A stretch of DNA of 54,255 bases from Candidatus Firestoneibacteriota bacterium (lineage in GTDB: Bacteria; Oederibacteriota; D2-FULL-39-29; CAIOVX01), in assembly GCA_903916325.1 (NCBI GenBank), contig CAIWWK010000156.1:1-54255 (forward strand), read 5' to 3'. The position numbers were made by a program, and so were the translations under genes. Numbering within the stretch: position 1 is the stretch's first letter; every line of letters starts with the position of its first letter. The notes beneath the pieces are model-generated. The model had not been told where the DNA came from. It saw nothing but the letters and a program-made list of their open reading frames with translations, and ran no database searches. Below, piece after piece: positions 3,900-50,685 of this stretch.

Positions 3900-3920
3900 C
3901 GGCTAAAGGAGCAGCTAAGA

Positions 3921-18902: not shown

Positions 18903-20006
18903 TGGCAGATCTGAAGTACGAATACGCGGCGCTGGAAAAGAGAGTCCTGGAGTTACGGGGGCATCTTTGACATTGACGGAAAGCTTGAAGAAGTAAAAAA
19001 AATTGACGTTGAGTCCTCGGGGGACAACTTTTGGGGGGATAACGAGAAAGCCAGGAAACTGCTTAAGAAAAGAGAGCAGTACCTCCGCGATATAGACGGC
19101 TGGAAGAAGCTCCACGCCGACCAAGAAGACCTGAAAGCCGGGCTGGAACTTCTTGCCCTTGAAAATGACGAGACCTTTCTGAAAGAGCTCGAAGCAAAAG
19201 CCGCGAAACTCCTCAAAGACATTGAAGCCAGAGAGCTTTACGTTTACTTCACCGATGAATACGACGGCAACAACGCTTTCCTGTCAATACATCCGGGAGC
19301 CGGCGGGACAGAGTCGCAGGACTGGGCTTCCATGCTGCTCCGCATGTACTCCAGGTGGATAGAGCGCAGGGGCTTTAAAGTTGAGACCATTGATCTTCTG
19401 CCGGGAGAAGAAGCAGGTGTAAAAGACGCGACACTGCTGGTTTCGGGCCCAAACGCTTACGGCTACCTTAAATCGGAAAAAGGCGTTCACCGCCTTGTCC
19501 GAATCTCACCGTTTGACGCCAACAAGAGAAGGCATACCTCTTTTGCTTCCGTGGATATCTCTCCTGAGGTAGACGACGTTCAGATCGAAGTGAAGGAAGA
19601 GGATTACCGGCTTGATACCTTTAGGGCCTCCGGAGCAGGCGGCCAGCACATAAACAGGACCGATTCCGCCGTGAGAATGACACACTACGCGACGAACATT
19701 GTAGTTACTTGCCAGAGCGAAAGATCCCAGCTCAAGAATAAAATAATTGCCATGAAAGTCCTTAAGTCAAGGCTTTATGAATATTACAAAGCGCAGCAGG
19801 ATGAGAAAATGAGCAAGGTTGGCGGCGAGAAAAAAGATATTGAGTGGGGAAGCCAGATAAGATCCTATGTTCTCCAGCCGTACCAGATGGTTAAGGATGT
19901 CCGTACCGGCTATGAAACAAGCAATACGCAGGGAATGATGGACGGCGAGATCGACGGTTTTATTGAGGCGTATCTAAAAATGAAGGCTGGGGCAAAGAAA
20001 AGTTAA
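18902..20006 (+). CDS. prfB: Peptide chain release factor 2, requires programmed +1 frameshift at CTT TGA C (18965-18971)
   Basis: Frame 0 runs from ATG 18902 to TGA 18968-18970 and is preceded by the SD-like GGGGG. The +1 frame from 18969 is open and joins track ORF 19332..20006 in the same frame. That ORF carries SPFD..KRRHTSFA and the SGAGGQHINRTDSAVR motif. Confidence 0.92.
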
Positions 20007-34704: not shown

Positions 34705-36402
34705 ATGCCGCTTAGAGAACTTCACATAAAGAACTTCGCGCTGATTGACGATATGGCCGTTCAGTTTAACGAGGGCTTTAATGTCATGACCGGAGAGACC
34801 GGCGCGGGCAAATCCATTATCATTGACGCAGTAAACTGCGTGCTTGGGGAAAGGGCCGATTCGGAGCTTATCAGGACGGGGCAGGAAACGGCAACCGTGC
34901 AGGGGTTGTTTGAAGGAATCGGTAAAAATACCGTTGAAAAACTTAGTGTAGCCGGAGTGGAGTCAGGAGACACGTTAATAATTAAACGCGAAATCTCCAG
35001 GTCCGGGAAAAATAAATGTTATGTGAACAACAGTCTGGTGACGCTTTCTGCGCTCAAGGCAATCGGCGAATTCCTCGCGGATGTGCACGGCCAGCACGAG
35101 CATCAGACCCTCCTTAATCCGGAAAACCAGCTTGACCTGCTTGACGCTTTCGCAAAAGTCTCAAAAGAAAAAGCGGCTTTTGCCGAACGGTTCGCCAAAC
35201 TCTCCGCGCTGACAGCGGAGCGGGATTCCTTGGTAATGAGCGAATCGGAGAAGCAGAGAAAAACTGACATGCTGGGCTATCAGGTGAAGGAAATTGAAGG
35301 CGCCGGGCTTGTCCCGGGTGAGGACGAAGAGATAGAGAACCGCAGAAATATGATGATAAACTCCGAAAAAGCCGCGGTTTCCGTAAACGAAGCCCACGGG
35401 CTTCTTCTCGGCGATGAAAACACTCCCGGGGCGCTTGCGGGAATTGAAGAGGCGATAAAAAGGGTGCAGTATCTTTCCGGGCTGGACAGCGGCTTAAAGA
35501 CCGCTCTGGAAGAACTGACCGACGCCGCGGCAAAGGTCAAGGACGCTTCGGATTCGGTCTCAGACCTGAAAGAAAAACTCGATTTCGACCCCAAAGAGCT
35601 TGAAACCCTTGAAGACAGAAGGGATCAGCTTATAAAGCTTAAAAAGAAGTACGGCGGAAGCCTCGCGGAAGTTCTCGAGTTCCTCTCAAAGATAAAGGGA
35701 GAGTTAAGGAATATCACAAAGAACGAAGAAGCAATTGAAGCGCTTAATATTGAGCTTGAAGCGGTCAGGAAGGAAACGGCAAAACTGGCGGAAATCCTCT
35801 CCGGGAAAAGAAAGGCGGCTGCCCGGGAATTCGAAAAGAAGGTCGTGAAGGAACTGCAGGATCTGGGCATGGCAAAAATAAAGTTCAAGTCCGATATCTC
35901 CCGGGCCGAAAGTGACGTGGGTCATATTGAGCTTGATGGGAAAAAATATATACTCACAAAGGAAGGCGTTGACCTGGTCCGATTTCTTATCTCTCCGAAC
36001 CTGGGCGAAGATCTTAAGCCTCTTGATAAGATAGCGTCCGGCGGAGAACTCTCAAGGATAATGCTGGCTCTTAAGGTAATACTCGGCGACAGCGATAAGG
36101 TCGCTACCCTGATATTTGACGAGATAGACACAGGGCTTGGCGGGAATATGGGCTCCACAATCGGGGAAAAGATTGCGAGCGTCGCAAAGAGTCACCAGGT
36201 GGTTTGCATCACGCATTTGCCGCAGATAGCCGCAAGAGCCTCTACGCACCTGAATGTCCGCAAGGAAGCGGTGAAAGGCAGAACGCAGGTCTTCGTGGAT
36301 AAGCTCGATCGCGAAGAGAGGGTCAAAGAAGTGGCAAGAATGCTCGGGGACGCTAGTAAAGAAATATCAATCAAGCACGCCAAGGAGCTATTGAAGAAAT
36401 AG
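34705..36402 (+). CDS. recN: DNA repair protein RecN
   Basis: 565 aa. Contains LHIKNFALIDD, Walker A GETGAGKS, signature ASGGELSRIMLALK and FDEIDTGLGG. Confidence 0.95.
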   Translation: MPLRELHIKNFALIDDMAVQFNEGFNVMTGETGAGKSIIIDAVNCVLGERADSELIRTGQETATVQGLFEGIGKNTVEKLSVAGVESGDTLIIKREISRSGKNKCYVNNSLVTLSALKAIGEFLADVHGQHEHQTLLNPENQLDLLDAFAKVSKEKAAFAERFAKLSALTAERDSLVMSESEKQRKTDMLGYQVKEIEGAGLVPGEDEEIENRRNMMINSEKAAVSVNEAHGLLLGDENTPGALAGIEEAIKRVQYLSGLDSGLKTALEELTDAAAKVKDASDSVSDLKEKLDFDPKELETLEDRRDQLIKLKKKYGGSLAEVLEFLSKIKGELRNITKNEEAIEALNIELEAVRKETAKLAEILSGKRKAAAREFEKKVVKELQDLGMAKIKFKSDISRAESDVGHIELDGKKYILTKEGVDLVRFLISPNLGEDLKPLDKIASGGELSRIMLALKVILGDSDKVATLIFDEIDTGLGGNMGSTIGEKIASVAKSHQVVCITHLPQIAARASTHLNVRKEAVKGRTQVFVDKLDREERVKEVARMLGDASKEISIKHAKELLKK

Positions 36403-36403
36403 C

Positions 36404-37045
36404 ATGCAAAACAAGTATAGAGAGCTCTGGAAGGACATACTTTCATTCAAGAAACGCACACTTTCGTTAGGGATATTTATCCTTGTCTTGATACTTTTGA
36501 ATTTTCTACCGTTTGCAATCACGCGAGTTGTCGGCTTTTTGGCGATTATTGCCGGAATTTATGGTTTATTAGTTTGGGCCGTGACTGGGGTTGTGTTCAT
36601 TGTCTTCGGTGTATTGTGGCTGATATCTGCCAGGTATTCTCGCACGCTGGCGTTCCTGATAATTGTGAACCTGGTATTTTTATTTACTTTCGTTTGTTAT
36701 TCCGTCACATTGGAGACATCGGAATGGATAACCGGCAGTTACTGTATCTTTCGTGCTGAGAAGATGATAGATTATCTTGAAAGTTACAAGAAAGAGAAAG
36801 GGGCGTATCCGGAGCATTTCAATCCTAATTCAATGGTCAAAATGGGAATATTTGATCTTCCGCAATACTCATATTACACAGACAAAGAGTGTGGTTATGT
36901 GCTGTGTTTTAATCAGTCACGCGGATATTTTCTTGATTTCCGGGTTTATGCGTACTCTCCGCTGCCTCGAACGGAATACCACCGGAAGATAGGGGAATTA
37001 AGAGAAAGCCCGGCTGGCTGGAAGAATTATATGGAACACTTTTGA
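36404..37045 (+). CDS. Hypothetical membrane protein
   Basis: 213 aa. It has about 3-4 hydrophobic helices in the N-terminal half and a Cys/Tyr-rich soluble C-terminal half. It starts 1 nt after the recN stop. I recognise no family. Confidence 0.5.
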   Translation: MQNKYRELWKDILSFKKRTLSLGIFILVLILLNFLPFAITRVVGFLAIIAGIYGLLVWAVTGVVFIVFGVLWLISARYSRTLAFLIIVNLVFLFTFVCYSVTLETSEWITGSYCIFRAEKMIDYLESYKKEKGAYPEHFNPNSMVKMGIFDLPQYSYYTDKECGYVLCFNQSRGYFLDFRVYAYSPLPRTEYHRKIGELRESPAGWKNYMEHF

Positions 37046-38250: not shown

Positions 38251-38988
38251 ATGGAAGTAATAATAACAAATTCAGCGGATGAAATGTCAAAGAAAGGGGC
38301 TGAGCTTGTCGCGGCCGCGGTAAAAAAGAATCCTAAAGCCGTGCTCGGGCTGGCCACCGGCGGAACGCCGGTAAAGATGTACGCGGAACTCATAAAACTT
38401 TACAAAAGCGGCGCTCTGGACTTTAAAAAGGTAAGGTCATTCAACCTTGACGAGTATGTGGGGCTGCCGGGAACGCACGACCAGAGTTACAGGTGTTTTA
38501 TGAACGAAAACCTGTTTAACCATATAAACATTGACAAGAAGAACACCAATGTTCCCGACGGGCTCGCGAAGGACATAGAAAAATCCTGCGCGGAATACGA
38601 GGCGAAAATCAAGGCGTGGGGTGGCATAGACCTGCAGGTACTCGGCATAGGAAGCAACGGGCATATCGCGTTCAACGAGCCGCTTTCCGGCGCGATGTCT
38701 AAGACCAGAAAAGTGGCGATATCTCAGAGAACTATATCCGATAACGCGAGGTTTTTCAAGACAATGGATGAAGTTCCGAAAACCGCGGTAACTATGGGTA
38801 TCGGCACCATACTTGAGGCGAGAAAAATAGTATTGCTAGCCAGCGGCGGCAACAAAGCGGACGTCATAGCCGCGGCGGTGGAAGGCCCGGTGACCCAGCT
38901 GGTTCCGGCGAGTTTCCTTCAGCTTCACGCCGACACGGTTTTTGTCGTTGAAAAAGAGGCGGCTTCTAAACTAAAAGGGAAATATTAA
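38251..38988 (+). CDS. nagB: Glucosamine-6-phosphate deaminase
   Basis: 245 aa. Contains GLATGGTP, FNLDEYVGL and GIGSNGHIAFNEP. Confidence 0.9.
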   Translation: MEVIITNSADEMSKKGAELVAAAVKKNPKAVLGLATGGTPVKMYAELIKLYKSGALDFKKVRSFNLDEYVGLPGTHDQSYRCFMNENLFNHINIDKKNTNVPDGLAKDIEKSCAEYEAKIKAWGGIDLQVLGIGSNGHIAFNEPLSGAMSKTRKVAISQRTISDNARFFKTMDEVPKTAVTMGIGTILEARKIVLLASGGNKADVIAAAVEGPVTQLVPASFLQLHADTVFVVEKEAASKLKGKY

Positions 38989-39019
38989 TTACGCGGATGC
39001 GCAGTAAAGGCGGAGGACG

Positions 39020-39055
<36 letters not shown>

Positions 39056-39081
39056 TGGACCGATAGACCCCATGAGTACTT

Positions 39082-39113
39082 AATTAGCAATTAGCAATCA
39101 GTAATTAGTAATC
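39082..39113. repeat. Degenerate tandem heptamer AATTAGC/AATCAGT/AATTAGT x4.5
   Basis: AATTAGC AATTAGC AATCAGT AATTAGT AATC, read directly from the sequence. Confidence 0.85.
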
Positions 39114-39180
39114 CGCGGAGCGGCAGACCGATGCACAACAGCTTTAATAAATTTGCTTAATCTTATGGAGTGAATTGACA

Positions 39181-39495
39181 ATGTCAATTCGCCAAGGTGC
39201 ATCGGAGCGGAGCCGGCAGCGAGGCCAAATGCTAATCAATTGTCAGCGTGAAAGGTCCGAAATCGTCGCGTTCAGTACAGATATTGAAGAATACCGCATG
39301 GATTTACCAAAAGATATGCATATTACAAACCCAAATGGTATACATACTAATTCGGGTGGGAATTGGAATGCAGTATGGCAAGATTTCTTTAATTCATATG
39401 GCAATGGAACCCCATCTTCTAATGAAATCTTAGATAATATGAACAGTATGATTAATGATTTTGGTTTACAAGATTATGAATGGGGTGGAAAATGA
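39181..39495 (+). CDS. Small ORF, possible truncated polymorphic-toxin C-terminal tip (HNH/EndoVII-like tail)
   Basis: The C-terminal half reads DMHITNPNGIHTNSGGNWNAVWQDFF..TPSSNEILDNMNSMINDFGL. From memory, it resembles the tail of HNH-type toxin domains paired with Imm11. No upstream HH catalytic motif or delivery domain is present. Its ATGA overlap with the next gene suggests translational coupling. The real start is uncertain (ATG 39181 or ATG 39298). Confidence 0.35.
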   Translation: MSIRQGASERSRQRGQMLINCQRERSEIVAFSTDIEEYRMDLPKDMHITNPNGIHTNSGGNWNAVWQDFFNSYGNGTPSSNEILDNMNSMINDFGLQDYEWGGK

Positions 39496-40169
39496 GATTC
39501 TACATAATTACCTCTGACAGAGCTTTTCCACTGGCCGAATGGTCCGAGAAAATGAGCTACAGAACGACTATAAGGTGTGTGTCTAACCCGGGGCATCAAA
39601 GAGCCGGCGACAGACAAGACATATTAAGAATTAATGTGCTTTCCACAAAATACATCGATGTTATTTGGACATGGTATAGTGAATTATTATTCAGCGAGAA
39701 AATTGTGGAAATGTTTCGAAAGGAAAACATTACAGGCTACGTTGTATCTACAGTTGTTGTAGATAATGTCTTTAGTTCTGCTGAAAGACAGAATCTATTG
39801 CTAATCAACAAGAAGCCATGTGTGGTATCAGAAAAATACGATAATAATAATCAAAATATTATCGAAAAACTTTCAGAAATAAAGATTATTGGGAAGGGTG
39901 GTTTTGCTGATAAGCATACTGGAATACTTTTATTAGAGCAATGCAATGAATGTGGATATAAGAAATACACTCCCTTTAGAAATGGTATTTTTATTGATGA
40001 AAAGCAATGGGACGGTTCCGATATGTTTCGAGTAGAACCATTTGGATATGCAGTTGTTTCTGAGAGATTTAAGATGGTAGTAGAAAAGAACAAGATATTA
40101 AATATATGCTTCAGGGAAACAAAAGACATAATTCATCCATCAAGGCGAAACATTGGTAAGAATACTTGA
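39492..40169 (+). CDS. Imm11-like (DUF1629 / double-CXXCG family) immunity protein
   Basis: 225 aa. It has the N-terminus MRFYIITSD, a CNECG motif, and WDGSDMFRVEPFGYAVVSERFK near the C-terminus. This is recognised by recollection of the family, not by a search. The gene is AT-rich. Confidence 0.5.
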   Translation: MRFYIITSDRAFPLAEWSEKMSYRTTIRCVSNPGHQRAGDRQDILRINVLSTKYIDVIWTWYSELLFSEKIVEMFRKENITGYVVSTVVVDNVFSSAERQNLLLINKKPCVVSEKYDNNNQNIIEKLSEIKIIGKGGFADKHTGILLLEQCNECGYKKYTPFRNGIFIDEKQWDGSDMFRVEPFGYAVVSERFKMVVEKNKILNICFRETKDIIHPSRRNIGKNT

Positions 40170-40328
40170 AGGCTGAACAACCGCCTACAATGACTGTAAT
40201 GCCAGGAAAGAAGATAGTGTAACTTATTATACAATGACGTCTACGGTCGCAGTGTAATTGTAAAGCACTAAGAGGACAGCTGCCCCTGTTACTACTTATG
40301 ATATAAGTACTATTCACGGAAAAGAGTC

Positions 40329-40357
40329 TTGACAACCCTGGAATATTGACATATAAT
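40329..40357 (+). promoter_or_regulatory. Perfect consensus sigma70 promoter upstream of the AAA ATPase
   Basis: TTGACA (40329-40334), exactly 17 nt, TATAAT (40352-40357). Confidence 0.7.
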
Positions 40358-40390
40358 AATGGAAACGCTAACTCCAATAAGGCAGGTATA

Positions 40391-41539
40391 ATGGAACCAG
40401 CTATTCCAAGAATATTTAACCCTCCGCAAGGCGGATATTTCCTTTTCGGGCCAAGAGGTACAGGGAAAACCACATTGTTGAAACAAAGATACAGCGAGGC
40501 TCTTTGGGTTAACCTTCTGGAGCCGGATCTCTTCCGGCAGTTAAGCGCCAGGCCTGAAAGACTGAAGGAAATGGTAGAAGGGGCCGGAAAGAAAGTGGTT
40601 GTAGTAGATGAGATACAAAAGATCCCGGAGCTGATAGATGTTATTCACAAACTAATTGAAGACAACAAAGACGTTAAATTTATCCTTACAGGTTCAAGCG
40701 CGAGAAAGTTAAAATCGACGGGAGCCGGATTGCTGGGAGGCAGGCTTGCCAAACAGTCATTATACCCGTTTATGGCTTTTGAGCTGGGAGACAAATTCAA
40801 ACTTGAGCAGGTTCTTGAAACGGGGCTTGTGCCGGTTGTTTATTCATCCGCTGACAGGGCTGAATTTCTGAAAGCTTATGCCGCTATGTATGTGAAAGAA
40901 GAGGTTCAGGCTGAAGGTTTGGTGAGAAATATCGGCAGTTTTTCCAGGTTTCTTGAATCCGTAAGTTTCTCGCACGGTTCTGAATTGAATATCAGCAGTG
41001 TTGCCAGGGACTGCCAGGTTGAAAGAAAGACAGTTGAGGGATTTGTTAACATACTCGAAGATCTTTTGATAGCATATCGTATACCGGTTTTTCGGAAGAA
41101 GGCAAAACGGCAGGTTGTGTCGCACCCAAAGTTTTATTTGTTTGACACGGGGCTGTTTCGGGTATTGAGACCTTCCGGCCCGTTGGATGATACCGGAAGC
41201 ATCGAAGGCTGCGCCCTTGAAGGATTGGTTGCCCAGCATCTTATCGCATGGTGTTCTTACGGCGGCGCGCGGAGCAGTGTTTATTACCATGAAACAAAAT
41301 CAGGCAGTGAAGTGGATTTTGTTGTTTACGGTCAGAATTCATTCTTTGCAATTGAAGTAAAGAACAGCCGGAAGGTCCGACAGGAAGATCTGGTGCCTTT
41401 AAGAAACTTTATAGAAGACTATCCCGAGAGTAAAGGCATATTTTTATACAGAGGCAAAGAAAAACTAAAAATATCAAATATCTACTGTGTTCCGGTTGAT
41501 GAATTCCTTAGAACTCTTGAGCCAGGCAAGAACCCATAA
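40391..41539 (+). CDS. AAA+ ATPase of the AAA_14/DUF4143 type
   Basis: It has the Walker A motif GPRGTGKTTL and the Walker B motif VVVVDEIQK, with a C-terminal region typical of DUF4143 proteins. ATG 40391 follows AAGGCAGG. The track start at 40346 lies inside the promoter. Confidence 0.75.
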   Translation: MEPAIPRIFNPPQGGYFLFGPRGTGKTTLLKQRYSEALWVNLLEPDLFRQLSARPERLKEMVEGAGKKVVVVDEIQKIPELIDVIHKLIEDNKDVKFILTGSSARKLKSTGAGLLGGRLAKQSLYPFMAFELGDKFKLEQVLETGLVPVVYSSADRAEFLKAYAAMYVKEEVQAEGLVRNIGSFSRFLESVSFSHGSELNISSVARDCQVERKTVEGFVNILEDLLIAYRIPVFRKKAKRQVVSHPKFYLFDTGLFRVLRPSGPLDDTGSIEGCALEGLVAQHLIAWCSYGGARSSVYYHETKSGSEVDFVVYGQNSFFAIEVKNSRKVRQEDLVPLRNFIEDYPESKGIFLYRGKEKLKISNIYCVPVDEFLRTLEPGKNP

Positions 41540-41545
41540 ACAATA

Positions 41546-41578
41546 AAATACTGCGGCCTGAAGGCCGAGAGTATTTCA
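41546..41578 (+). terminator. Hairpin terminator candidate after the ATPase
   Basis: AAATACTGCGGCC-TGAA-GGCCGAGAGTATTT (bulged stem of about 12 bp) followed by TTTC. Confidence 0.5.
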
Positions 41579-41727
41579 TAATGTGAGTAATCTCTTTCTG
41601 TAGTATCCGGGGGATGTCGCCATTAACCGAGGCCCAATGCCAACAAAATGTCAGCGTGAAGAGTCTGGTACTGTTTCAGCTTTATGACGCTGATATTCCA
41701 GATGACCTTGGAAACGGAGAATAGATA

Positions 41728-43200
41728 ATGAAAAGATATGTTTTAAGGGTGTTTCTCTTTCTTACGGCGCTGTTTGTATTTGTTGCCGCCGCTTCTGCGG
41801 GCTCGGTTTACTTCGTTTCAACCTCAGGCAGTGACAGAACCGGCGATGGTTCAGAGTCGCGGCCGTTCGCCTCTATTATGAAAGCTGTTCTGGCGGTGCC
41901 GGATGACGGCTCCCGTATTCTCGTGGAACCCGGGACCTACAAAGGGACCTGCAGTATTGCCCGAGCCTTCAAGAACAGGCTTTTTGTAGAATCCAAAGAA
42001 CCTTACCGCGCCAGGCTCGTCAACCTCCCCGGCGGGATCGTTAAGGTATTATATATCGCCGGAAGCAATATCACTCTAAGCGGGTTTGAAATAACAAACG
42101 AAGGGGAGATCCCTCCGGATTATTCTTCGAAAAACGAGTACCTGGTCCAGATTACGGGGCCCGCGGCGGATATTACCGTCAATGACTGTATCCTCCACGA
42201 CAACTTTATTAATGATATGGTCAAGATAAACTCCGGCGCGGAACGGATATTGTTCAGCGGGAATGTGTGCTACAACCAGGGCAGAGACTTGCAGTATAAA
42301 AAGCCGAAAGGTTTTCAGCATATGGATATTAACACGGTAAGTTATGTTACAGTGCAGGATTGCATTTTCTTTAACAATTACAGGGACAACCGCTCAAAGA
42401 CCTGCAACGGCTCCTTCATAGTCTGCAAAAACTCGGAAAAAACTTTCCACACGCACGATAATCTTTTTCAGCGCAATATATTCTTGAATTGGCAGGGCCC
42501 GTCCGACCAGGCTATGCTGTTGTTCGGCGAGGACACTCACGCCATGATTTACGGCCTCGTGAACGGCACGGCCCAGAACAACCTTTTCATTATGAATGAC
42601 ACGGGTTTGGGCGGAAGCGGAGCTTTCACCGTGAAAGGCTGCAAGGACATTATCTTCCGCGCCAATACGGTCGTGGGAAACGCCTTCAACGGCAGGACCT
42701 GGCCGTTTGCGTTCAGGGTATGCACAGAAAAAGGCGAACTGACGGTGGACGGGGTGGGGTTCTTCAATAATGTATTTGCCAGCACGGACGGCAGGATGAC
42801 CAAATTCAACTTTGGTGATGACGCGCAATCCGAAAATGTCTCCTATGACGCAAACTGCTACTGGAACAACGGCAAAGCTATACCGGTTGATCCCGGTTCC
42901 AATGTCCATTTTAAAGCCGTGTCGGTTGACGCGCGCGCGGTAACTTCAGACCCTATGCTTCCCAAGCCGGGCGCTCCGCCTGTTCTGCCTGAATGGGACA
43001 GCGCGAAGCTAAAGTTCGCTTCAGGCGCCGGCACAATAAGGGAAGAGTTTGTGCGTCTCGTAAACGGATACGGGAAGGTACCTCAAGGCAGCGGGCTTGC
43101 CGGCAAAGCCGTAAGAAATAATATGCCCGAAGACGACATCCTCGGAAAAAAGCGGAAAGCTGCTCCGGATATCGGCTGTTTTGAACTTGAGGCGAATTAA
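41728..43200 (+). CDS. Secreted right-handed parallel beta-helix protein (pectate-lyase-fold / DUF1565-like)
   Basis: It has a signal peptide, then VYFVSTSGSDRTGDGSESRPFASIMKAV. Repeated PbH1-like rungs follow (VNDCILHDN, VQDCIFFNN, FQRNIFLN, QNNLFIMN, FRANTVVGN, FFNNVFAS). It ends in ...APDIGCFE. Confidence 0.7.
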   Translation: MKRYVLRVFLFLTALFVFVAAASAGSVYFVSTSGSDRTGDGSESRPFASIMKAVLAVPDDGSRILVEPGTYKGTCSIARAFKNRLFVESKEPYRARLVNLPGGIVKVLYIAGSNITLSGFEITNEGEIPPDYSSKNEYLVQITGPAADITVNDCILHDNFINDMVKINSGAERILFSGNVCYNQGRDLQYKKPKGFQHMDINTVSYVTVQDCIFFNNYRDNRSKTCNGSFIVCKNSEKTFHTHDNLFQRNIFLNWQGPSDQAMLLFGEDTHAMIYGLVNGTAQNNLFIMNDTGLGGSGAFTVKGCKDIIFRANTVVGNAFNGRTWPFAFRVCTEKGELTVDGVGFFNNVFASTDGRMTKFNFGDDAQSENVSYDANCYWNNGKAIPVDPGSNVHFKAVSVDARAVTSDPMLPKPGAPPVLPEWDSAKLKFASGAGTIREEFVRLVNGYGKVPQGSGLAGKAVRNNMPEDDILGKKRKAAPDIGCFELEAN

Positions 43201-43293
43201 CCCCGCCGAGTCAACCTGCGGAAGCTATATCCTAATAGTTGCGCCACTCCTGTCTCAGATAAATGAAAGAAAGCCGCAGCCGGTATTATTGTC

Positions 43294-43322
43294 TTGCGAA
43301 CTTCCGCTCCAAATAATATAAT
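43294..43322 (+). promoter_or_regulatory. Sigma70-like promoter for the 43355-48270 gene pair
   Basis: TTGCGA (43294-43299), 17 nt, TATAAT (43317-43322). Confidence 0.6.
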
Positions 43323-43354
43323 TTAAAGGTTGCTATTCCTATAACGGGGGACGA

Positions 43355-44809
43355 ATGAAAAGAATCCTAATCCCGATACTGCTCCTGACTGCCGCTTCAT
43401 TTGCTTTTGCCCAAACACTGCCTGAAATTGTCGAGAAAGGAAAGGCAAAATATGAAGACCTGATAGTAGATGTCGGAAGTTTTGATGTTTTTTACGCGGT
43501 CGCGAAAGAAATTGGGAACCAGGTCTTAACTTTATCGAGAGACAATAAATATGAAGAAATCATTGAAGTTTTCGCGAAAGATGCGAATATGCAAATAGCC
43601 GAATATTGCGCGGGAAAAAAGAGCAGAGCGCAGGTTACTGATAAGGAAGCCTTAACTTCAACCGTGTACACCAGGTTTGTAAAAATATATAAAGGGGACG
43701 AGGAATATTTGTTCCCGGCTCCGAGCGATAAAGAGCAAAGAGTGGAACTTGAATTAATATGGTTGTGGTGGAAAAAGATTGGCCCCGGCTCACAACTGCA
43801 GGGAACGGTTAAGGTGGACGGCTTGGAGTGCTACAAAATACTTGTTAATCCGGTCAACGAATACTATTTTTATATCGATAAAGGGACGTTCAATATCAAA
43901 AAAATGGAAAGAAAGGATAAGGCCTTATACCTGAAAAGCGACAAAGCCGCGCAAGAAACGATAATTTTCGGAGCATTTTATCCAATGAGGAAGCAGGGTG
44001 ACAAGGGCGCTGTTTTCCGGTCAAGGAAGGAAGCAGAGGAAGCTTTCAAGCAGAAGTCTTGCTTTCCTAATACTTTCAGGAGAAAAGTGTTTAATGACAA
44101 GACTTCTGCCGTGCAGGAGACTCCATATATGATGTTTCCCGCGGAAATTGCAAACGTAAAACATGAAGCTCTGGATGAAACTGTGTTTGACAAAACGCGT
44201 TGGGAGTCATTTAAACAGGGTTCTTTCTCAAAATTCATTGAAGATGTAAATAATGAAGGCAAGTTGCCTGCCCCGATAGAAATAGACAAAGCAAAAGAAT
44301 TAGTCCAGATATATGTTAATCTGACAGAATTCAAAAAAGAAACCCAAACATTTCCGGAAAGGACAATTAATAGCGGCGGGCGCACCATAACAATTAAATA
44401 CGCCAATAGAGATAATTATTCCTGCAAGACGGAAAGCGAAGGGATAACCCCCACAGTCAAAATCGGCAAGGATTCGCTGAGTATGATTTTCGGCCAGGAA
44501 GTTAAGGTGGAAAGGATAGTATTGCAGGGAACCGGTTTGTATGAGACAAATATATACGGGGCAAAAATGTCAGATACAAACACTTTCGCAAACTTTGAAC
44601 TTGCCTATGTTAATATTCGTAATGAATCAAAATCCTTCAGAAAATACGAAAATAATTCAAGCCGGTCTATGGAGTTAAAAGAGAGTTTCAAAGCAACAGC
44701 GATAAGTTTTAATTCCCTGCCTGCCAAGTCCGCTTTTGACAAAAACTATGGTTTGCCTATGGAGTTTATCGTAAGAATCGCGATTTGGGGCAAGGCGGCT
44801 TCCAGGTGA
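43355..44809 (+). CDS. Secreted hypothetical protein (LolA-like segment plus C-terminal beta-sandwich-like segment)
   Basis: 484 aa with the signal peptide MKRILIPILLLTAASFAFAQ. The segment WWKKIGPGSQLQGTVKVDGLECYKILV is paralogous to WWWQFGTEFKIVGTDKFLDYECYVITG in the next gene. The fold assignments are guesses. Confidence 0.6.
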   Translation: MKRILIPILLLTAASFAFAQTLPEIVEKGKAKYEDLIVDVGSFDVFYAVAKEIGNQVLTLSRDNKYEEIIEVFAKDANMQIAEYCAGKKSRAQVTDKEALTSTVYTRFVKIYKGDEEYLFPAPSDKEQRVELELIWLWWKKIGPGSQLQGTVKVDGLECYKILVNPVNEYYFYIDKGTFNIKKMERKDKALYLKSDKAAQETIIFGAFYPMRKQGDKGAVFRSRKEAEEAFKQKSCFPNTFRRKVFNDKTSAVQETPYMMFPAEIANVKHEALDETVFDKTRWESFKQGSFSKFIEDVNNEGKLPAPIEIDKAKELVQIYVNLTEFKKETQTFPERTINSGGRTITIKYANRDNYSCKTESEGITPTVKIGKDSLSMIFGQEVKVERIVLQGTGLYETNIYGAKMSDTNTFANFELAYVNIRNESKSFRKYENNSSRSMELKESFKATAISFNSLPAKSAFDKNYGLPMEFIVRIAIWGKAASR

Positions 44810-44811
44810 AA

Positions 44812-47800
44812 ATGAACAGAAGGCATACAAAAACATCGGGTTTTCGTTTTCATTTTATTCTTCTGTTGTTTTTGTGTGTGTTGCAGACGGGCGCATTATG
44901 GGCCGCCCGGCCGATAGATGCGATCTTTATTCCGGTCAAAGACAAACCTTCCACGCTGGAGACCCCATTTTACGATGGCTATATGAAAGTAAAGATATCA
45001 AACTTGTTCGGATTGGATGTTAAATATTCCCGTTCGGTGAAAGTCTCAAACCTTATTCTGGAATGGGACAGCGGAGCAATAACTCAGCCTGTCAATCTTG
45101 AATTTAGTTGTTTTGACAGTCTGGGAACGGAGACTTTGATGAAGGCGGCAATCCCTGCCAATAGCACTATTTTTACAATAGAAATAAACAGGGAAGCTTT
45201 GAACCTCAAGATGCGCGATAACGTCTCTTCCGGTGCGGCCGGCTATAGCCGTATAAAAAATGGGCTTAAAGCCGTAAAGGTTTCGGCGACTCTCATTGAG
45301 CCTGAAGTCCCGGCAGGAATGTTGCCTGCATCGGCTGTTTCCCCGGCTGCGGTCTCGGCGCCGGGAAACATAGACCGCAATTTCAGAATCTCGCTTCAGC
45401 GGCCGTTGAAGCAGGCCTGCGCTGTTCTTCTTGACAGAGAGGTGACCGTTACCTGTCAGGAGAAATACGATGAAAGGAAATATATATTCTCGGAAAAAGT
45501 CTTGATATCTAAAATAATAATGTTTTTCCCGGGAATATTAACGAGGTCACCGTACGGCGGTTTAATGTCATCAAACGGCTGTAACGTGATAGTATCCTGT
45601 TCAAATGATTCCGGCAATCTCAAGGAGAAGGAAACTTTTTCGGTAGACGGGAAAACGTCTTTAACTGTTTCCCTTGAACAGGTGACTGACTGTATTGTGC
45701 TAAGGGATAAACCGGAGTTTGATAAAGACGGAAAGCGGTTCCCGCCGCAGGGCTTGAAATGCTTGTCCGAAGGACGGATTGTGTTTCAAGGTTCAGTTAA
45801 GCCTCTGGAACTTAATTCCACAGCGGTGACGTCGGGTAAGGTGAAAAACGCGTTGAACCTAAGCAAGCAGGAATCGGACGCCTTCATTGAGAGAGTGAAA
45901 AAGAAAGCGATTCTGACAAAAGACGATTCATTCTTTGAAATAAGATGCGAGTCCTATCCTCGGAACAGAAAGTTCTACGAAGGCCGTATCTATAGGATGG
46001 CGAAGGACCTTGACTGCGGATACTACTACTGCAAAGATTTAGTTGTTACATTTGTTAATGGCAGAGAATCTCCGATCTTTCCCGGCTCAGTAGATATAGA
46101 AAAGGGGCTGGCTTCGGTTTCGGATGAGTTGAAGAATTCGGGATGGGACAAGCTCGGAAATATTTCAGGCCCGGAATTGGCTGGCTGGTGGTGGCAGTTT
46201 GGGACAGAGTTTAAGATTGTAGGAACAGATAAATTCCTTGATTATGAGTGCTATGTGATTACCGGCAAAGGATTGAAGGACGCCGGTGTGGAAGTCTGGG
46301 TGGAAAAAGAGAGCGGAAAATTAAGGAAGCTGATAAGGCAGGTTGTCACAAAAGGCGCTTTTCAAACGGGACTGCAGGCAACCGAGTACTATAACTACTT
46401 TTCAGGAAAGAACGGTTTTGAGTTTCCAGGATTGGTGCAATACAACAGCGGACTGAAAATCTGGTGCTGGCCGGAAAAAAAAGCTTCGCTGGCTGATATT
46501 GGTTTTTCAGGCAGGGAATCTGACTCTCCGGTAAAAACGCGCGCAATCAACAGGAAAAACGAACTCTACCAAAAGGAAGAGCAGGAACGGGAAGAACGCG
46601 CGGACGATAACGCGCGCGATACCAGGTATAACACAAGAAGTCTTTCTCTTTCCCGGTACGTGGACCCGCTTACGGGGATCTGGTTTTTTATTCCGGAAGG
46701 TTTTAAAAACAAAGGCAACTACAGCAATTGTTTTGAATATACCGGCGAGACGAAGCAGAACGGCGCGAAGACCGGAGGAACAAAAGTCTCGGATTCGGGC
46801 GCCGCCTCAAAGAAAGGCGTCAAAGACCATTTGATAATCACAAAGTTCTATTCAACAAAGGATTTTGAAGCGCTTGCTGCCCAGATCAAGCAGGAAAACG
46901 AGAAGAAGAATCCTGAGACAACCATAAAGTATTCCGAAAAGAGGCAGATAAAGGAGCATGAAGCGATAATACTGGATATTGCAGGCCCTGACGACTACGG
47001 GATAAGCTCAAAGACAAAAGAATTATTCGTCCGGAAAGGCAATGCCGTAATAGATATAGAGCTGGTTTATTACAAAATGAGCGACGAAACAGCCGGCAAG
47101 ATAATTGACAAAATAATTGAGAAGCTGCAATTCGGCGAGTCGAGTATAATAGCCCATTCTTTTGGAAGCGCCCGGCTTGGCGAGCTGGCGGAATTAATGG
47201 GGGACAATAAGGACAAAGAAGCCCTGGAAATGATAAATTCGGAACTAAAGAAAAACCCCCGGGATGGCGAGCTGCTTTACAACGAAGGAGTCCTGCTCGG
47301 GAAGCAGGGCGATAAAGCGGAAGCGTCACGGCTTATAAAGGCGGCTTTTGAGAACGGTTACTGTGATTTTTCCGGCCTTTTTGAAACAAAGGAAGGAAAG
47401 AGGATGGTCGACGACGCTGTCGCGCAGGAAGTGATGAAGGATCGGGCAAAGTATTATGGGCAAGGGCGCAAAGTCCTGCTGGAGAAAATAAAGAAAGAAC
47501 TGGCCAGCTATTATGAAGTCAAGATGAAAGAAAGCAATATAATTATGTACACCGACATAAGAGATAACGGCATACTTGACATAATAAATGAAGCCTTAAA
47601 GACCACCGGAGAATTAGCCAGGAACAACATAAAGGCGGCAAATACCCCGTATCCGGTAATTTGGGTCTTGTCCAATAAGAACGAAGTGAACGAGGCTATG
47701 ATCGGAAGCCTGACCGGCAGCAGCGGCTACTTCAGCGGCTTGTTTGTCCCCGCGTACGGGATGCTCTTTACCGACGCGGACAGCGGGTTTGGAACGGTTG

Positions 47801-48270
47801 TGCACGAATATATGCACGCCATACACAGGGCGGACTCCGCCGAAAGCTTTGAAAAGCACCCCCGCTGGCTTTCTGAAATGCTCAGCACTTCTGTGGAAGA
47901 ACTGGAATGGAACGAAGCAAAGCAGAAGCCGGAAATTAAATATTTCTCGGGTAGATATCCCGGGCTGCTGGACGCTATTATTTACGACGATGTCCTGCCG
48001 ATTGAAAAGCTCGTCAGCATGACCGACAAGGACCTTATGTCGGACAAGAATATAGATGTTTTTTACGCCACGGTGCGCTATCTTGGCCTTTATCTTTCGG
48101 CAAACAATCTCACCGCGAAATTCTACGAAGAGTATAAGAAAGACTACCGGGAAGACGCAACGGGTAGATTGGCGCTTGAAAAAGTCCTAAACACGAACCT
48201 GAAAGACTTTCAAAGTGTATGGGAAAATTGGGCTGTTACAACGCCTTTAATAAAATTAACTAAGAAGTAA
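44812..48270 (+). CDS. Large secreted multidomain protein with C-terminal HExxH (DUF1570-like peptidase MA) domain
   Basis: 1152 aa from ATG 44812, which lies 2 nt after the previous stop. It has a signal-like N-terminus FHFILLLFLCVLQTGALWA. It has a TPR-like stretch, then VVHEYMHAIH (47803-47817 encodes HEYMH), followed by PRWLSEMLSTSVE. Confidence 0.7.
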   Translation: MNRRHTKTSGFRFHFILLLFLCVLQTGALWAARPIDAIFIPVKDKPSTLETPFYDGYMKVKISNLFGLDVKYSRSVKVSNLILEWDSGAITQPVNLEFSCFDSLGTETLMKAAIPANSTIFTIEINREALNLKMRDNVSSGAAGYSRIKNGLKAVKVSATLIEPEVPAGMLPASAVSPAAVSAPGNIDRNFRISLQRPLKQACAVLLDREVTVTCQEKYDERKYIFSEKVLISKIIMFFPGILTRSPYGGLMSSNGCNVIVSCSNDSGNLKEKETFSVDGKTSLTVSLEQVTDCIVLRDKPEFDKDGKRFPPQGLKCLSEGRIVFQGSVKPLELNSTAVTSGKVKNALNLSKQESDAFIERVKKKAILTKDDSFFEIRCESYPRNRKFYEGRIYRMAKDLDCGYYYCKDLVVTFVNGRESPIFPGSVDIEKGLASVSDELKNSGWDKLGNISGPELAGWWWQFGTEFKIVGTDKFLDYECYVITGKGLKDAGVEVWVEKESGKLRKLIRQVVTKGAFQTGLQATEYYNYFSGKNGFEFPGLVQYNSGLKIWCWPEKKASLADIGFSGRESDSPVKTRAINRKNELYQKEEQEREERADDNARDTRYNTRSLSLSRYVDPLTGIWFFIPEGFKNKGNYSNCFEYTGETKQNGAKTGGTKVSDSGAASKKGVKDHLIITKFYSTKDFEALAAQIKQENEKKNPETTIKYSEKRQIKEHEAIILDIAGPDDYGISSKTKELFVRKGNAVIDIELVYYKMSDETAGKIIDKIIEKLQFGESSIIAHSFGSARLGELAELMGDNKDKEALEMINSELKKNPRDGELLYNEGVLLGKQGDKAEASRLIKAAFENGYCDFSGLFETKEGKRMVDDAVAQEVMKDRAKYYGQGRKVLLEKIKKELASYYEVKMKESNIIMYTDIRDNGILDIINEALKTTGELARNNIKAANTPYPVIWVLSNKNEVNEAMIGSLTGSSGYFSGLFVPAYGMLFTDADSGFGTVVHEYMHAIHRADSAESFEKHPRWLSEMLSTSVEELEWNEAKQKPEIKYFSGRYPGLLDAIIYDDVLPIEKLVSMTDKDLMSDKNIDVFYATVRYLGLYLSANNLTAKFYEEYKKDYREDATGRLALEKVLNTNLKDFQSVWENWAVTTPLIKLTKK

Positions 48271-48352
48271 AGCCAGAAGTTCGGAAGATTAGAGGATATG
48301 GGGGCTACATTCTTATGAGCCCGAGCCTCTGAACATCTGAGCATCAGGCCTC
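48271..48352. repeat. Imperfect inverted repeat of the GAAGTTCGGAAG..AGAGG family
   Basis: CAGAAGTTCGGAAGATTAGAGG ... CCTCTGAACATCTGAGCATC is related to 25727-25755. Confidence 0.45.
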
Positions 48353-48403
48353 AAATACATGGGATAGAGACTATTTTGCATCTTAGGAGGGAACAAGAGG
48401 GGC

Positions 48404-48432
48404 TTGATGTTAATGCGCTAATAGTATATAAT
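48404..48432 (+). promoter_or_regulatory. Sigma70-like promoter for the vapBC-like pair
   Basis: TTGATG (48404-48409), 17 nt, TATAAT (48427-48432). Confidence 0.55.
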
Positions 48433-48473
48433 GACAGCATAGGTGTTATAGCACGGGAAGGGAGACAGCCAAT

Positions 48474-48731
48474 ATGAAGAAGATAAAGACTATGGTGTAT
48501 ATAAATGCTGATTATAAAAAGCGTGCCCTTGCGTTAAGAAGTATTGCCCATAAAAGTATGAGCTCCTTGGTGGACGAAGGGCTGGAAGCTGTCTTTATGA
48601 AATACACTAACACGCCTAAAACCATAAAGGAAGCGGTCGCTTCCACATACGGAGCAAGTAACACAATAGAATTCAAACGCGATGAATTCAACAAGGATTT
48701 TGAAAAACGCGAAAAAAGAAGAGGTAAATAA
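48474..48731 (+). CDS. Antitoxin, ribbon-helix-helix-like
   Basis: 85 aa. The N-terminal part MVYINADYKKRALALRSIAHKSMSSLVDEGLEAV fits a strand-helix-helix pattern. The tail is basic. The TAATG overlap links it to the downstream PIN gene. Confidence 0.6.
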   Translation: MKKIKTMVYINADYKKRALALRSIAHKSMSSLVDEGLEAVFMKYTNTPKTIKEAVASTYGASNTIEFKRDEFNKDFEKREKRRGK

Positions 48732-49138
48732 TGGAAGCTCGCTCGAAAGCAGGCCCTGAGAAACAAAAATATCTTATAGACAGCGATGTTCTAATTAATC
48801 ATATTCATAAGAAAAGAGATACATTGGTGAAACTTATTGAGAAAGATAATATAGAGGTGTCCGCAAGCGTGCTGAATAAGATAGAGTTGTACCGGGGCGC
48901 GAGGAATGAAAAGGATAAAGTTATAATAGACGATCTTTTACGGTATTTCTTTATTTACGAAGTAGAAGAGCTGATAGCTGACAAAGTTTATGAGTTATGC
49001 TCAATAAACAAGCTGGGCTCTTTAGGGCCTATGGATTTGATGATTGCGGCCACCTGTTTAGTAAATAATTTGGTTTTAGTCACACATAATCTGAAACATT
49101 TCAGCCCGGTTCCGGAGCTAAAGATTTACAAGGAGTAA
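48731..49138 (+). CDS. vapC: PIN-domain toxin (VapC-like)
   Basis: 135 aa. It has YLIDSDVLINH (first acidic residue) and MDLMIAATCLVNNLVLVTHNLKHF (distal Asp context), typical of VapC. Confidence 0.75.
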   Translation: MEARSKAGPEKQKYLIDSDVLINHIHKKRDTLVKLIEKDNIEVSASVLNKIELYRGARNEKDKVIIDDLLRYFFIYEVEELIADKVYELCSINKLGSLGPMDLMIAATCLVNNLVLVTHNLKHFSPVPELKIYKE

Positions 49139-49200
49139 AGAGGATAAACAAAGGCGGCATGTCAAAGCCAGGTGTAACTGCGATGCTTCTGGAAAAACCC

Positions 49201-49235
49201 TTGCCCCCTCCCCTTATGATGAATGGGAGGGGGCA
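49201..49235. repeat. Perfect 12-bp-stem hairpin TTGCCCCCTCCC-CTTATGATGAAT-GGGAGGGGGCAA
   Basis: The reverse complement of the left arm equals the right arm exactly. It shares a core with 16187-16214. Confidence 0.85.
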
Positions 49236-49317: not shown

Positions 49318-50685
49318 TTAGATGTTCATCAATGCTTTAACTTTCTTTTTGTAATCCGCCACCAGTTTCTTAGATTTTGCCTCTGATTTGGATTCCGCGA
49401 AAATCCTGATGATGGGTTCCGTGTTGGACGGCCTTATATTTACCTTGACCTCTCTGGCGGAAAGAGAGATGCCGTCTATAGTTTCCAGCTTAAACTTGCC
49501 CGCCTCGCCTTTGAGTCTCTCCATTATTTTGAACCCGTTGTTCTTGGTGAGGTTGATCTTGTCTTTCACGATAAAGTATTTGGGAATATCCGCCGAAAGA
49601 GCCCTTATGGACTTGCCGGATTCCGCCATGTACTGAAGTACCAGCGCGATGCCGATCAGCGAATCCCTTCCCGGGTGAACGAGCGGGTACATTACTCCGC
49701 CGTTGCCTTCGCCGCCTATAATCCCGTTCTCTTTAAGCATTGCTTCGGCCACGTGAACCTCGCCGACCTTTGTCCTGATGAGTTTTGACTTGTATTTTCT
49801 GCAGATATCTTCCATCGCTATGGTGGTTGACATGTTTACAACAGCGGTCTTCCCCGGGTTCTTCCTGAGGATGTAATCCGAGGTCAGGCAGACGGAGTAT
49901 TCCTCGCCGATATAATGGCCGGTGTGGTCTATCAGCGCCAGCCTGTCAGCGTCCGGATCCTGCGCGAAGCCTATGTCGGAATTAGTGGATTTGACCTTGG
50001 CGCAGAGTTCTTTGAGGTTGACGATGGTCGGTTCCGGATTGTGCGCGAAGTTTCCGTTCGGCTCGCAGTTTATGCATTCAACATCGCAGCCAAGCTCTGA
50101 GAGCAGCGAGGGAGTAATGACGGCCCCCGCTCCGTTGCAGGAATCAAGCACAACCTTGAAGCGCTTGCTTCTTATCAGATCTACATCAACAATATCCAGG
50201 ACTTTCTTGATATGAATTTTTATACCATCATAGTCGTTGTTGACAATGCCCAGTCCGTCCCACGCGACCGTTCTGAAAGCGTTCTGGTAATAGGCGTTGA
50301 GCATCTGCTTGCCTTCCTCGTCGTTCAGGAAGACGCCGTTGCTTTTCAGGAATTTAAGGGCGTTCCACTGAACGGGGTTATGACTGCCTGTTATTATGAC
50401 CCCGCCGGCGGCTTTAAGTTCTTCCACCATGAGCGCGCAGGTGGGCGTTGTGGCAATATCCAGGTCCATTACCTCGCAGCCGGTTGAAAGCAGTGCCCCA
50501 AGGACGGAGTGTTTTATCATAAGGCCTGAAATTCTGGTATCCCGCCCGACTACCACGCGCCCTCCGTTAAGATATGTTCCGAAGGCCATACAAAGCCGGG
50601 TTACTACCTCAGGCGTAAGTGTCTCCCCGATAACTCCGCGGACGCCGGAAACGCCTATCATCAGAGTGCTTTTTGCTGTGCTCAT
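49318..50685 (-). CDS. Alpha-D-phosphohexomutase (phosphoglucosamine mutase / PMM-PGM type)
   Basis: 455 aa. It has GVRGVIGE, the phosphoserine loop TGSHNP, the metal loop DPDADR and the sugar loop GGEGNGG. Confidence 0.85.
   Translation of the reverse strand: MSTAKSTLMIGVSGVRGVIGETLTPEVVTRLCMAFGTYLNGGRVVVGRDTRISGLMIKHSVLGALLSTGCEVMDLDIATTPTCALMVEELKAAGGVIITGSHNPVQWNALKFLKSNGVFLNDEEGKQMLNAYYQNAFRTVAWDGLGIVNNDYDGIKIHIKKVLDIVDVDLIRSKRFKVVLDSCNGAGAVITPSLLSELGCDVECINCEPNGNFAHNPEPTIVNLKELCAKVKSTNSDIGFAQDPDADRLALIDHTGHYIGEEYSVCLTSDYILRKNPGKTAVVNMSTTIAMEDICRKYKSKLIRTKVGEVHVAEAMLKENGIIGGEGNGGVMYPLVHPGRDSLIGIALVLQYMAESGKSIRALSADIPKYFIVKDKINLTKNNGFKIMERLKGEAGKFKLETIDGISLSAREVKVNIRPSNTEPIIRIFAESKSEAKSKKLVADYKKKVKALMNI

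Follow-up and report, generated by a model that had tools for sequence, protein, structure and literature searches.

On a 54,255-nucleotide stretch of chromosomal DNA from a Candidatus Firestoneibacteriota bacterium (contig CAIWWK010000156.1; the whole stretch is hereafter the window), we identified a 5147-bp cassette that is present in some haplotypes of the population and absent from others, and that carries two tightly coupled genes, P2 and P3 (Table 1). P3 appears to be a fusion of an orphan N-terminal region to a predicted zinc metallopeptidase module, and P2 would be its orphan partner. We explain the pair best, with a probability that we put at roughly 0.55, as an accessory exported-protease operon in which P3 is a Sec-exported zinc metallopeptidase fusion whose binding or targeting modules deliver substrate for cleavage. 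In the proposed mechanism, P2 and P3 would be exported to the periplasm or cell envelope, where P2 and the orphan N-terminal region of P3 would serve for binding or targeting, handing a protein or peptide substrate to the tetratricopeptide repeat (TPR)-peptidase module of P3, which would then cleave it.

If this is true, a periplasmic TPR-metalloprotease typical of the lineage has been re-used, fused to about 580 orphan residues and paired with an orphan partner, and the resulting dispensable cassette is segregating in a natural lake population of a candidate phylum that has no cultured members. What is new is that the peptidase has been fused to an orphan region, comes with an orphan partner and behaves as a cassette; its catalytic module joins a large, recognisable peptidase superfamily as a new member, and the finding represents neither a new kind of system nor an opening on a long-standing question.

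Gene layout and the presence/absence cassette

The window is chromosomal, with rpoA, topA, arg genes, atpGD, prfB, smc, glyA, dxs, recN, pgl, glmM and a cofD-like gene among those it carries. Its GlmM shares 95-98% identity with proteins from contigs of metagenome-assembled genomes (MAGs) named Candidatus Firestonebacteria. An earlier note on this DNA had described three consecutive secreted proteins, the beta-helix protein P1 followed by P2 and P3, which it read as a unit with modules in common. All three predicted open reading frames (ORFs) are real and lie on the same strand, and their N-termini, judged by eye and from hydropathy, each have the basic n-region, hydrophobic h-region and AxA-like cleavage site expected of the signal-like sequences that the note had described (ASA↓G, AFA↓Q and LWA↓A for P1, P2 and P3, respectively). 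The same inspection found no lipobox in any of the three N-termini and no additional membrane-spanning segment. P2 and P3 are thus probably exported, with N-termini that resemble Sec type-I signals.

The tight coupling of P2 and P3 reported in the earlier note holds. The two genes are spaced by 2 nt, or overlap by 4 nt at the P2 stop if the alternative GTG start of P3 at 44806, the choice of some gene callers, is used (giving 1154 aa), and an AGGTGA Shine-Dalgarno-like sequence for P3 encloses the P2 stop codon. Because the gap or overlap is so short and the Shine-Dalgarno-like sequence contains the stop codon of the upstream gene, this layout suggests translational coupling. The promoter candidate that had been proposed for the pair is likewise present, in a region where 22 promoter-like sites were found against 15.8 ± 3.0 expected, a slight enrichment only. 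Just 3' of the P3 stop codon lies an unusually stable extended hairpin (fold of 48265-48380, -39 kcal/mol, z=-3.3), which is mostly inside the cassette, the folded stretch reaching about 18 nt beyond the cassette end at 48361; it is followed by no T-run and may serve as a terminator.

The boundaries of the cassette are defined by a contig from a Firestonebacteria MAG (L006) that is collinear with the window over 38799-43214 and 48362-49226 at 98-98.8% identity (blastn) and has 15 bp where the window has the cassette. L006 keeps P1 at 99.2% identity, with the VapB-like and PIN genes immediately after it. At least two independent assemblies show the cassette-free haplotype. Several P1-carrying contigs, L028 and L030 among them, end at window position 43206, shortly before the cassette junction, which is the kind of break that assemblers make when both haplotypes co-exist in one sample. 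The junctions carry short imperfect direct repeats that are too weak to tell insertion from deletion.

Outside this population neither P2 nor P3 was found, and within it they always occur as a pair at this locus. They lie together on at least 10 contigs, their ORFs are intact in at least 10 independent assemblies, and their DNA is identical across all recovered copies, which come from dozens of assemblies and several studies. Given their coupled translation signals and their presence within the same 5147-bp indel, P2 and P3 are best regarded as a co-inherited unit, apparently a self-contained and translationally coupled accessory operon of this Candidatus Firestonebacteria population. Apart from the cassette, the haplotypes that carry it and those that lack it are about 99% identical, and they constitute a natural experiment on its role.

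The empty-site haplotype bears directly on the proposal that P1, P2 and P3 make up a single machine, secreted or on the surface, that captures and degrades glycan or protein. The three genes are indeed adjacent, on the same strand and all provided with signal-like N-termini, and no terminator-like structure was found between P1 and P2. However, P1 persists without P2 and P3 in a haplotype 98.8% identical to the window, in at least two assemblies; the cassette has a promoter-like site of its own; the GC content at third codon positions (GC3) differs, at 0.61 for P1 (native codon usage), 0.45 for P2 (non-native) and 0.54 for P3 (intermediate); and comparison of P1 with P2 and P3 found no similarity. 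The earlier note had itself named a failure of the three genes to co-occur elsewhere as a refutation, and no co-occurrence was found outside this population. The one-machine proposal, largely refuted by the empty-site haplotype, is in our view very improbable, and P1, since it is present in the haplotype that lacks P2 and P3, is an unrelated neighbour gene that is independent of the cassette.

The opposite extreme, that P2-P3 is non-functional or decaying ORFan DNA in which the fusion arose by chance, would fit the lack of detected homologues for P2 and for residues 1-612 of P3, and the copies offer no sequence diversity on which selection could be tested. Against decay stand the uninterrupted ORFs of 484 and 1152 codons, the signal-like N-termini, Shine-Dalgarno-like sequence and translational coupling, the intact catalytic residues, and the identity of the sequence across dozens of assemblies from several studies, and we accordingly rate it the least probable of the explanations considered here.

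Table 1 Features of the P1-P2-P3 region and their positions in the window
Feature	Position	Strand	Basis or remark
Variable island, 9.9 kb	39280-49176		Flanked by pgl and glmM; related Firestonebacteria MAG contigs lack it
P1, 490-aa protein of right-handed beta-helix type, predicted exported	41728-43200	+	Outside the cassette
Presence/absence cassette, 5147 bp	43215-48361	+	Contains the promoter-like site, P2, P3 and the 3' hairpin
Sigma-70-like promoter candidate for P2-P3	43294-43322	+	TTGCGA-17-TATAAT, 10/12 consensus match only; within the cassette
P2, 484-aa orphan protein, predicted exported	43355-44809	+	Signal-like N-terminus; no library match
P2 residues 138-162, WW...ECY.I segment in common with P3	43766-43840	+	Regular expression, BLASTP, hhalign
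P2 residues 364-464, weak similarity to P3 211-306	44444-44746	+	BLASTP, shuffle, hhalign
P3, 1152-aa multidomain protein, predicted exported	44812-48270	+	Intact ORF in at least 10 assemblies
P3 residues 32-560, orphan N-terminal region	44905-46491	+	Contains WW...ECY.I (P3 459-483, 46186-46260)
P3 residues 561-612, charged low-complexity linker	46492-46647	+	Read from the sequence
P3 residues 613-785, possible DcrB/PsbP-like beta domain (weak assignment)	46648-47166	+	Aligns with the first post-signal domain of P0004-P0006
P3 residues ~786-880, TPR repeats	47167-47451	+	Consensus TPR structures
P3 residues 881-1152, predicted gluzincin-type metallopeptidase domain	47452-48267	+	HExxH and homology
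HEYMH, P3 998-1002	47803-47817	+	Zinc-binding/catalytic motif by pattern
Putative third zinc ligand, E1022 of P3	47875-47877	+	Ligand role from thermolysin-like alignment
Extended hairpin just 3' of the P3 stop	48267-48379	+	3' end of the cassette

The predicted peptidase half of P3 and its relatives

A full, filter-free HMMER search with P3 against 1.84 billion representative proteins returned 448 matches, the best 150 of which all fall on P3 residues 667-1152, with none touching residues 1-660. The nearest complete relatives (P0004, P0005 and P0152) are 34-37% identical to P3 and about 550 aa long, and their mature sequence, behind a signal peptide of their own, aligns with P3 from residue 613-615 to the end. 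The two closest relatives of all (L018, and L019/L015; 45-53% identity) are incomplete, as their contigs end at positions equivalent to P3 residues 734-874. A word-indexed homologue search with P3 had returned self matches only, although the full HMMER search later found these relatives at 45% identity, and a scan of genome contigs with P3 found nothing.

The standalone homologues bring signal peptides of their own and begin to align with P3 at residue 613, so that P3 would be a fusion in which an orphan region of about 580 residues and the charged linker replace the signal peptide of a standalone protein. The standalone proteins with a DcrB-like domain, TPR and HExxH (P0004, P0005, P0006 and P0152) are 34-37% identical to P3 613-1152 over their whole mature length, have the same domain order, keep HExxH, H, D and HPxW..EM invariant, and have no Pfam model of their own. 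They are 546-562 aa long (P0006, cut by a contig end, has 470 aa) and, in contrast to P3, have no counterpart of its 580-residue N-terminal region. Longer family members, of 700-900 aa, were considered as possible carriers of a P3-like N-terminal extension and rejected, as their extensions are unlike P3.

The standalone proteins also differ from P3 in their genomic setting, as they lie between mnmE and mnmG and have no P2-like neighbour. On four metagenome contigs (L010, L012, L014 and L016) the gene order is yidC, a 690-aa protein, mnmE, the homologue, mnmG, rsmG, parA and parB, gene identities in this context being taken from N-terminal sequences and gene order only; no P1-like, P2-like or P3-N-like genes were found near these homologues. 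On the same contigs, the slot between yidC and mnmE holds an exported protein that is conserved and about 690 aa long, in the origin-proximal yidC...parAB cluster of uncultured bacteria.

The earlier note had divided the C-terminal half of P3 into a PsbP/DcrB-like segment, TPR-like repeats and a metallopeptidase-like domain, and our results support the three parts to different degrees. For the TPR repeats the support is strong: the region of residues 788-847 matches consensus TPR structures in the PDB (E=3e-8 over 788-842; E=5e-10 with the family profile), with the Pfam TPR models below their cut-off on P3 itself. The DcrB-like assignment is weak, as Pfam DcrB reaches E=0.008, below cut-off, on the homologue P0006, and the family profile gives E=0.3 against DUF1795/EagT6/PA0094 over the first domain (P3 613-785). 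Support for the peptidase domain is good and comes by way of transitive homology. P3 matches P0021 at E=1.2e-18, and P0021 in turn passes the DUF1570 cut-off of 22 with a score of 30.5 bits; through this chain (P3 to P0021 to DUF1570), P3 is placed among the predicted gluzincin peptidases of the MA clan.

The catalytic residues expected of such an enzyme are conserved. HExxH (P3 998-1002), H1005, D1008 and HPxW..EM are invariant in six close relatives, and across 78 family members W1019 and E1022 form the only invariant columns, HExxH being nearly invariant there. DUF1570 is matched by 29 of the 78 members and Peptidase_MA_2 by 26 (E<=0.001), while PDZ is found in 45 and TPR models in about 33. 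The family profile also aligns with residues 122-176 of the thermolysin-like structure 1npc across HExxH...E, in a weak match (E=0.05). In P3 this intact gluzincin-type active site stands behind a TPR domain, an arrangement found in many periplasmic proteases. Residues 613-1152 of P3 belong to a widespread family related to DUF1570 and Peptidase_MA_2. Proteins matching DUF1570 (PF07607) or Peptidase_MA_2 (PF13485) are homologous to P3 over about residues 795-1145, with E values of 1e-15 to 1e-23 and the HExxH...W..E core in common. Most of them carry a C-terminal PDZ domain, whereas P3 has none and scores below the Pfam cut-offs; among the matches listed, none has the N-terminal region of P3.

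An architecture that combines TPR repeats with a zinc peptidase raises the alternative that P3 is an envelope quality-control protease, a BepA-like periplasmic TPR-metalloprotease whose extra domains bind hydrophobic clients such as lipoproteins and outer-membrane proteins, with P2 as an accessory factor. In E. coli, BepA is a core-gene product of peptidase family M48 that is exported by the Sec pathway and joins a zinc HExxH protease to TPR repeats. A role of this kind would agree with the PDZ domain in 45 of the 78 family members, as in periplasmic quality-control proteases, with the position of the standalone homologues beside yidC, mnmE and mnmG, and with Sec type-I signal-like N-termini that carry no surface-sorting signal. 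However, a dispensable, strain-variable cassette is not expected of core envelope maintenance, and the LolA-like label of the presumed client-binding domain comes from pattern recognition only. The family moreover differs from M48/BepA: both proteins combine TPR with a zinc protease, but BepA comes from another peptidase family and arranges its domains in the opposite order, and the resemblance, drawn from general knowledge only, makes BepA a possible model for how a TPR-protease might act in the envelope. Overall, we regard a quality-control role for P3 as rather unlikely.

Orphan regions of P2 and P3 and the proposed function of the pair

Outside the peptidase half of P3, the cassette encodes orphan sequence. 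P2 has no match in Pfam, NCBIfam, the PDB, PADLOC or PHROGs, and residues 32-612 of P3, searched domain by domain against Pfam and NCBIfam up to E<=10, have no match in these profile libraries or in the PDB. P3 has no PADLOC or PHROGs match either; scans of viral contigs found no relatives of P2 or of the N-terminal half of P3, and plasmid searches found none of P2 or P3. Candidate phyla commonly encode exported multidomain proteins that are orphans. AlphaFold2 models from single sequences were unusable, with a predicted local distance difference test score (pLDDT) of 31.7 for mature P2 and 33.7 for P3 32-612.

P2 and P3 had been described as a paralogous pair that reuses two module types in different order. 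We found no whole-gene paralogy, and what stands of that description is two short segments of borderline similarity. The first is the WW...ECY motif, which is present in both proteins, at P2 138-162 and P3 459-483 (BLASTP E=0.04, hhalign E=0.008), and the second pairs P2 364-464 with P3 211-306 (BLASTP E=0.25, hhalign E=0.06); their shuffle z-scores, 4.9 and 5.3, respectively, are for segments that were delimited after being seen. A third hhalign comparison gave E=0.29. Two independent local matches make pure chance unlikely, with a joint probability of the order of 1e-4 as a rough estimate from the whole-protein shuffle comparison of P2 with P3 (p about 0.02). By the same shuffle approach, neither domain 1 of P3 against domain 2 nor the P2 C-terminus against P3 domain 1 rose above chance. 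P2 and P3 would therefore have at most two diverged modules in common, in different order. A further match, of P2 34-82 with the C-terminal helices of P3 (1073-1121; BLASTP E=0.04), was rejected, as the family profiles give P2 about 0 bits.

The fold labels that had been attached to these modules fared less well. Searches with the whole proteins, the segments and a two-sequence profile gave no match to LolA-like families, MucB_RseB or DUF4367 in Pfam, NCBIfam or the PDB, and the sole match of the LolA-like search was DUF6759 at E=0.044. The segments read as beta-sandwiches (the P2 C-terminus and P3 domains 1 and 2) have no Pfam or NCBIfam match, and a three-sequence profile of them found nothing relevant in the PDB. 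Both the LolA/RseB-like and the beta-sandwich labels are plausible as pattern recognition only.

How these orphan regions and the peptidase module work together is proposed here mainly from sequence. Gene structure and coupling, the indel, the homology of the C-terminal half and the conserved catalytic residues are established, whereas export of both proteins, their partnership, substrate capture and proteolysis are inferred. Several points weigh against the exported-protease operon that we favour. On P3 itself, Peptidase_MA_2 scores 13.7 bits against a cut-off of 32.4 (E=0.056), and the usual W..EG.A motif reads WLSEMLS in P3, with Met in place of Gly after the Glu. Literature searches on Firestonebacteria and on DUF1570 yielded nothing functional. 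The similarity between P2 and P3 is borderline, and the word-indexed search that returned self matches only for P2 is of the type that missed P3 relatives at 45% identity. Purifying selection on P2-P3 is not demonstrable, since all recovered copies are DNA-identical and leave no basis for a selection test. Finally, the periplasm, the cell surface and the surrounding medium, if the proteins are secreted, would all be candidate final locations of P2 and P3.

The variable island and neighbouring genes

The cassette and P1 lie within a larger variable island, flanked by pgl (38251-38988) and glmM (49318-50685, minus strand). In a relative of 88-90% identity (L004), about 16 bp take the place of the island (blastn), and in one of about 80% identity (L005) pgl directly adjoins glmM. 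The GC content of the island is 0.441, against 0.494 in the rest of the window.

This setting supports a different account of the pair, in which P2-P3 is a conflict cassette, horizontally acquired into a defence or competition island, with P3 exported as an antagonistic effector, for example a protease that is lytic or aimed at competitors, or acting against phages at the level of the envelope, and with P2 as its cognate inhibitor, immunity protein or chaperone. The neighbours in the island include a DUF2380 fragment with Gmx_para_CXXCG, an ATPase that matches PDC-S01 and a VapBC-like pair; the cassette is polymorphic for presence and absence and low in GC (0.447); and a tightly coupled pair of a small and a large gene is typical of an effector and its partner. 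However, neither P2 nor P3 matches PADLOC or any toxin or immunity family in Pfam or NCBIfam, no relatives were found in viral, plasmid or phage collections, the relatives of the catalytic module sit in a housekeeping neighbourhood, and no dedicated secretion-system gene or sorting signal was seen. We consider the conflict account unlikely, and the present data do not separate it from the quality-control reading of P3.

A bolder version of the exported-protease operon would make the cassette a mobile two-protein capture-and-cleave module, in which about 1000 orphan residues with undescribed binding folds mediate microbe or phage interactions of a subpopulation. Such a role would explain both the location in a conflict island and the present/absent polymorphism, and we hold it to be distinctly unlikely.

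P1 itself can reasonably be read as a secreted right-handed beta-helix protein, in keeping with the pectate-lyase-type fold first suggested for it. Residues 33-72 match Pfam DUF1565 at 23.7 bits against a cut-off of 20.3, a match that covers the N-terminal cap only; Beta_helix (E=0.056) and DUF5123 (E=4e-4) are weak Pfam matches below cut-off, and three strict PbH1-like repeats are present. The cap motif also occurs in DUF1565/pectin-lyase-fold surface proteins, among them the Leptospira LIC10774 family, but P1 is not a member of that family: the NCBIfam match (E=1.8e-6, residues 26-73) reaches 27 bits against a cut-off of 380 and is significant over about 50 N-terminal residues only. A PHROG tail-protein match falls on the same N-terminal motif. 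No PDB match was obtained at E<=0.01 and none in PADLOC, and viral contig scans, plasmid search and phage search found no relatives of P1. Between P1 and its copy in L006 there are four non-synonymous and no synonymous changes, three of them clustered in residues 451-457 (window 43078-43098) and one at residue 353.

Other genes of the island were noted in passing. At its left edge, a low-GC pair at 39175-40169 (GC 0.39 and 0.35) consists of a 106-aa ORF that matches only the C-terminal part of DUF2380 and overlaps a 229-aa Gmx_para_CXXCG-like protein. DUF2380 and Gmx_para_CXXCG are known mainly as paralogous families of Myxococcus, and the pair looks like a toxin/immunity-type remnant. Directly upstream of P1, an AAA_14/DUF4143 ATPase (40346-41539) matches PDC-S01, a candidate single-gene defence system of PADLOC, at E=6e-55. 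At the right edge, the VapBC-like toxin-antitoxin pair (48474-49138) comprises an 85-aa ORF and a 135-aa PIN-domain gene whose start lies 1 nt inside that ORF, and the pair is retained in the haplotype that lacks P2-P3.

Two kinds of repeat lie near the left boundary. The window has two copies of a 38-nt motif (CGAGGCCCAATGCCAA..AA.TGTCAGCGTGAA.AGTC), one at the left boundary of the island (39220-39257) and one about 65 nt upstream of P1 (41628-41665), and the island-free relative L004 has a single copy (at about 3860-3900), with zero occurrences expected by chance; the motif could be a regulatory or recombination site. Just 3' of pgl, a tandem array with a 14-nt period (AAGACAGAAGACAG...) spans 39007-39055.

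Elsewhere in the window, a 213-aa ORF at 36387-37045 (GC 0.41, no Pfam match) lies between recN and a cysteine desulfurase gene and is absent from L005 and from contig L027, the latter being 99.5% identical downstream but only 82% in recN. This region indicates a second small indel and recombination breakpoint within the population. Further upstream, prfB (RF2) apparently carries the classical programmed +1 frameshift site CTTTGAC (18965-18971), a known phenomenon for this gene, with the downstream ORF (annotated 19332-20006) in frame starting at 18969.

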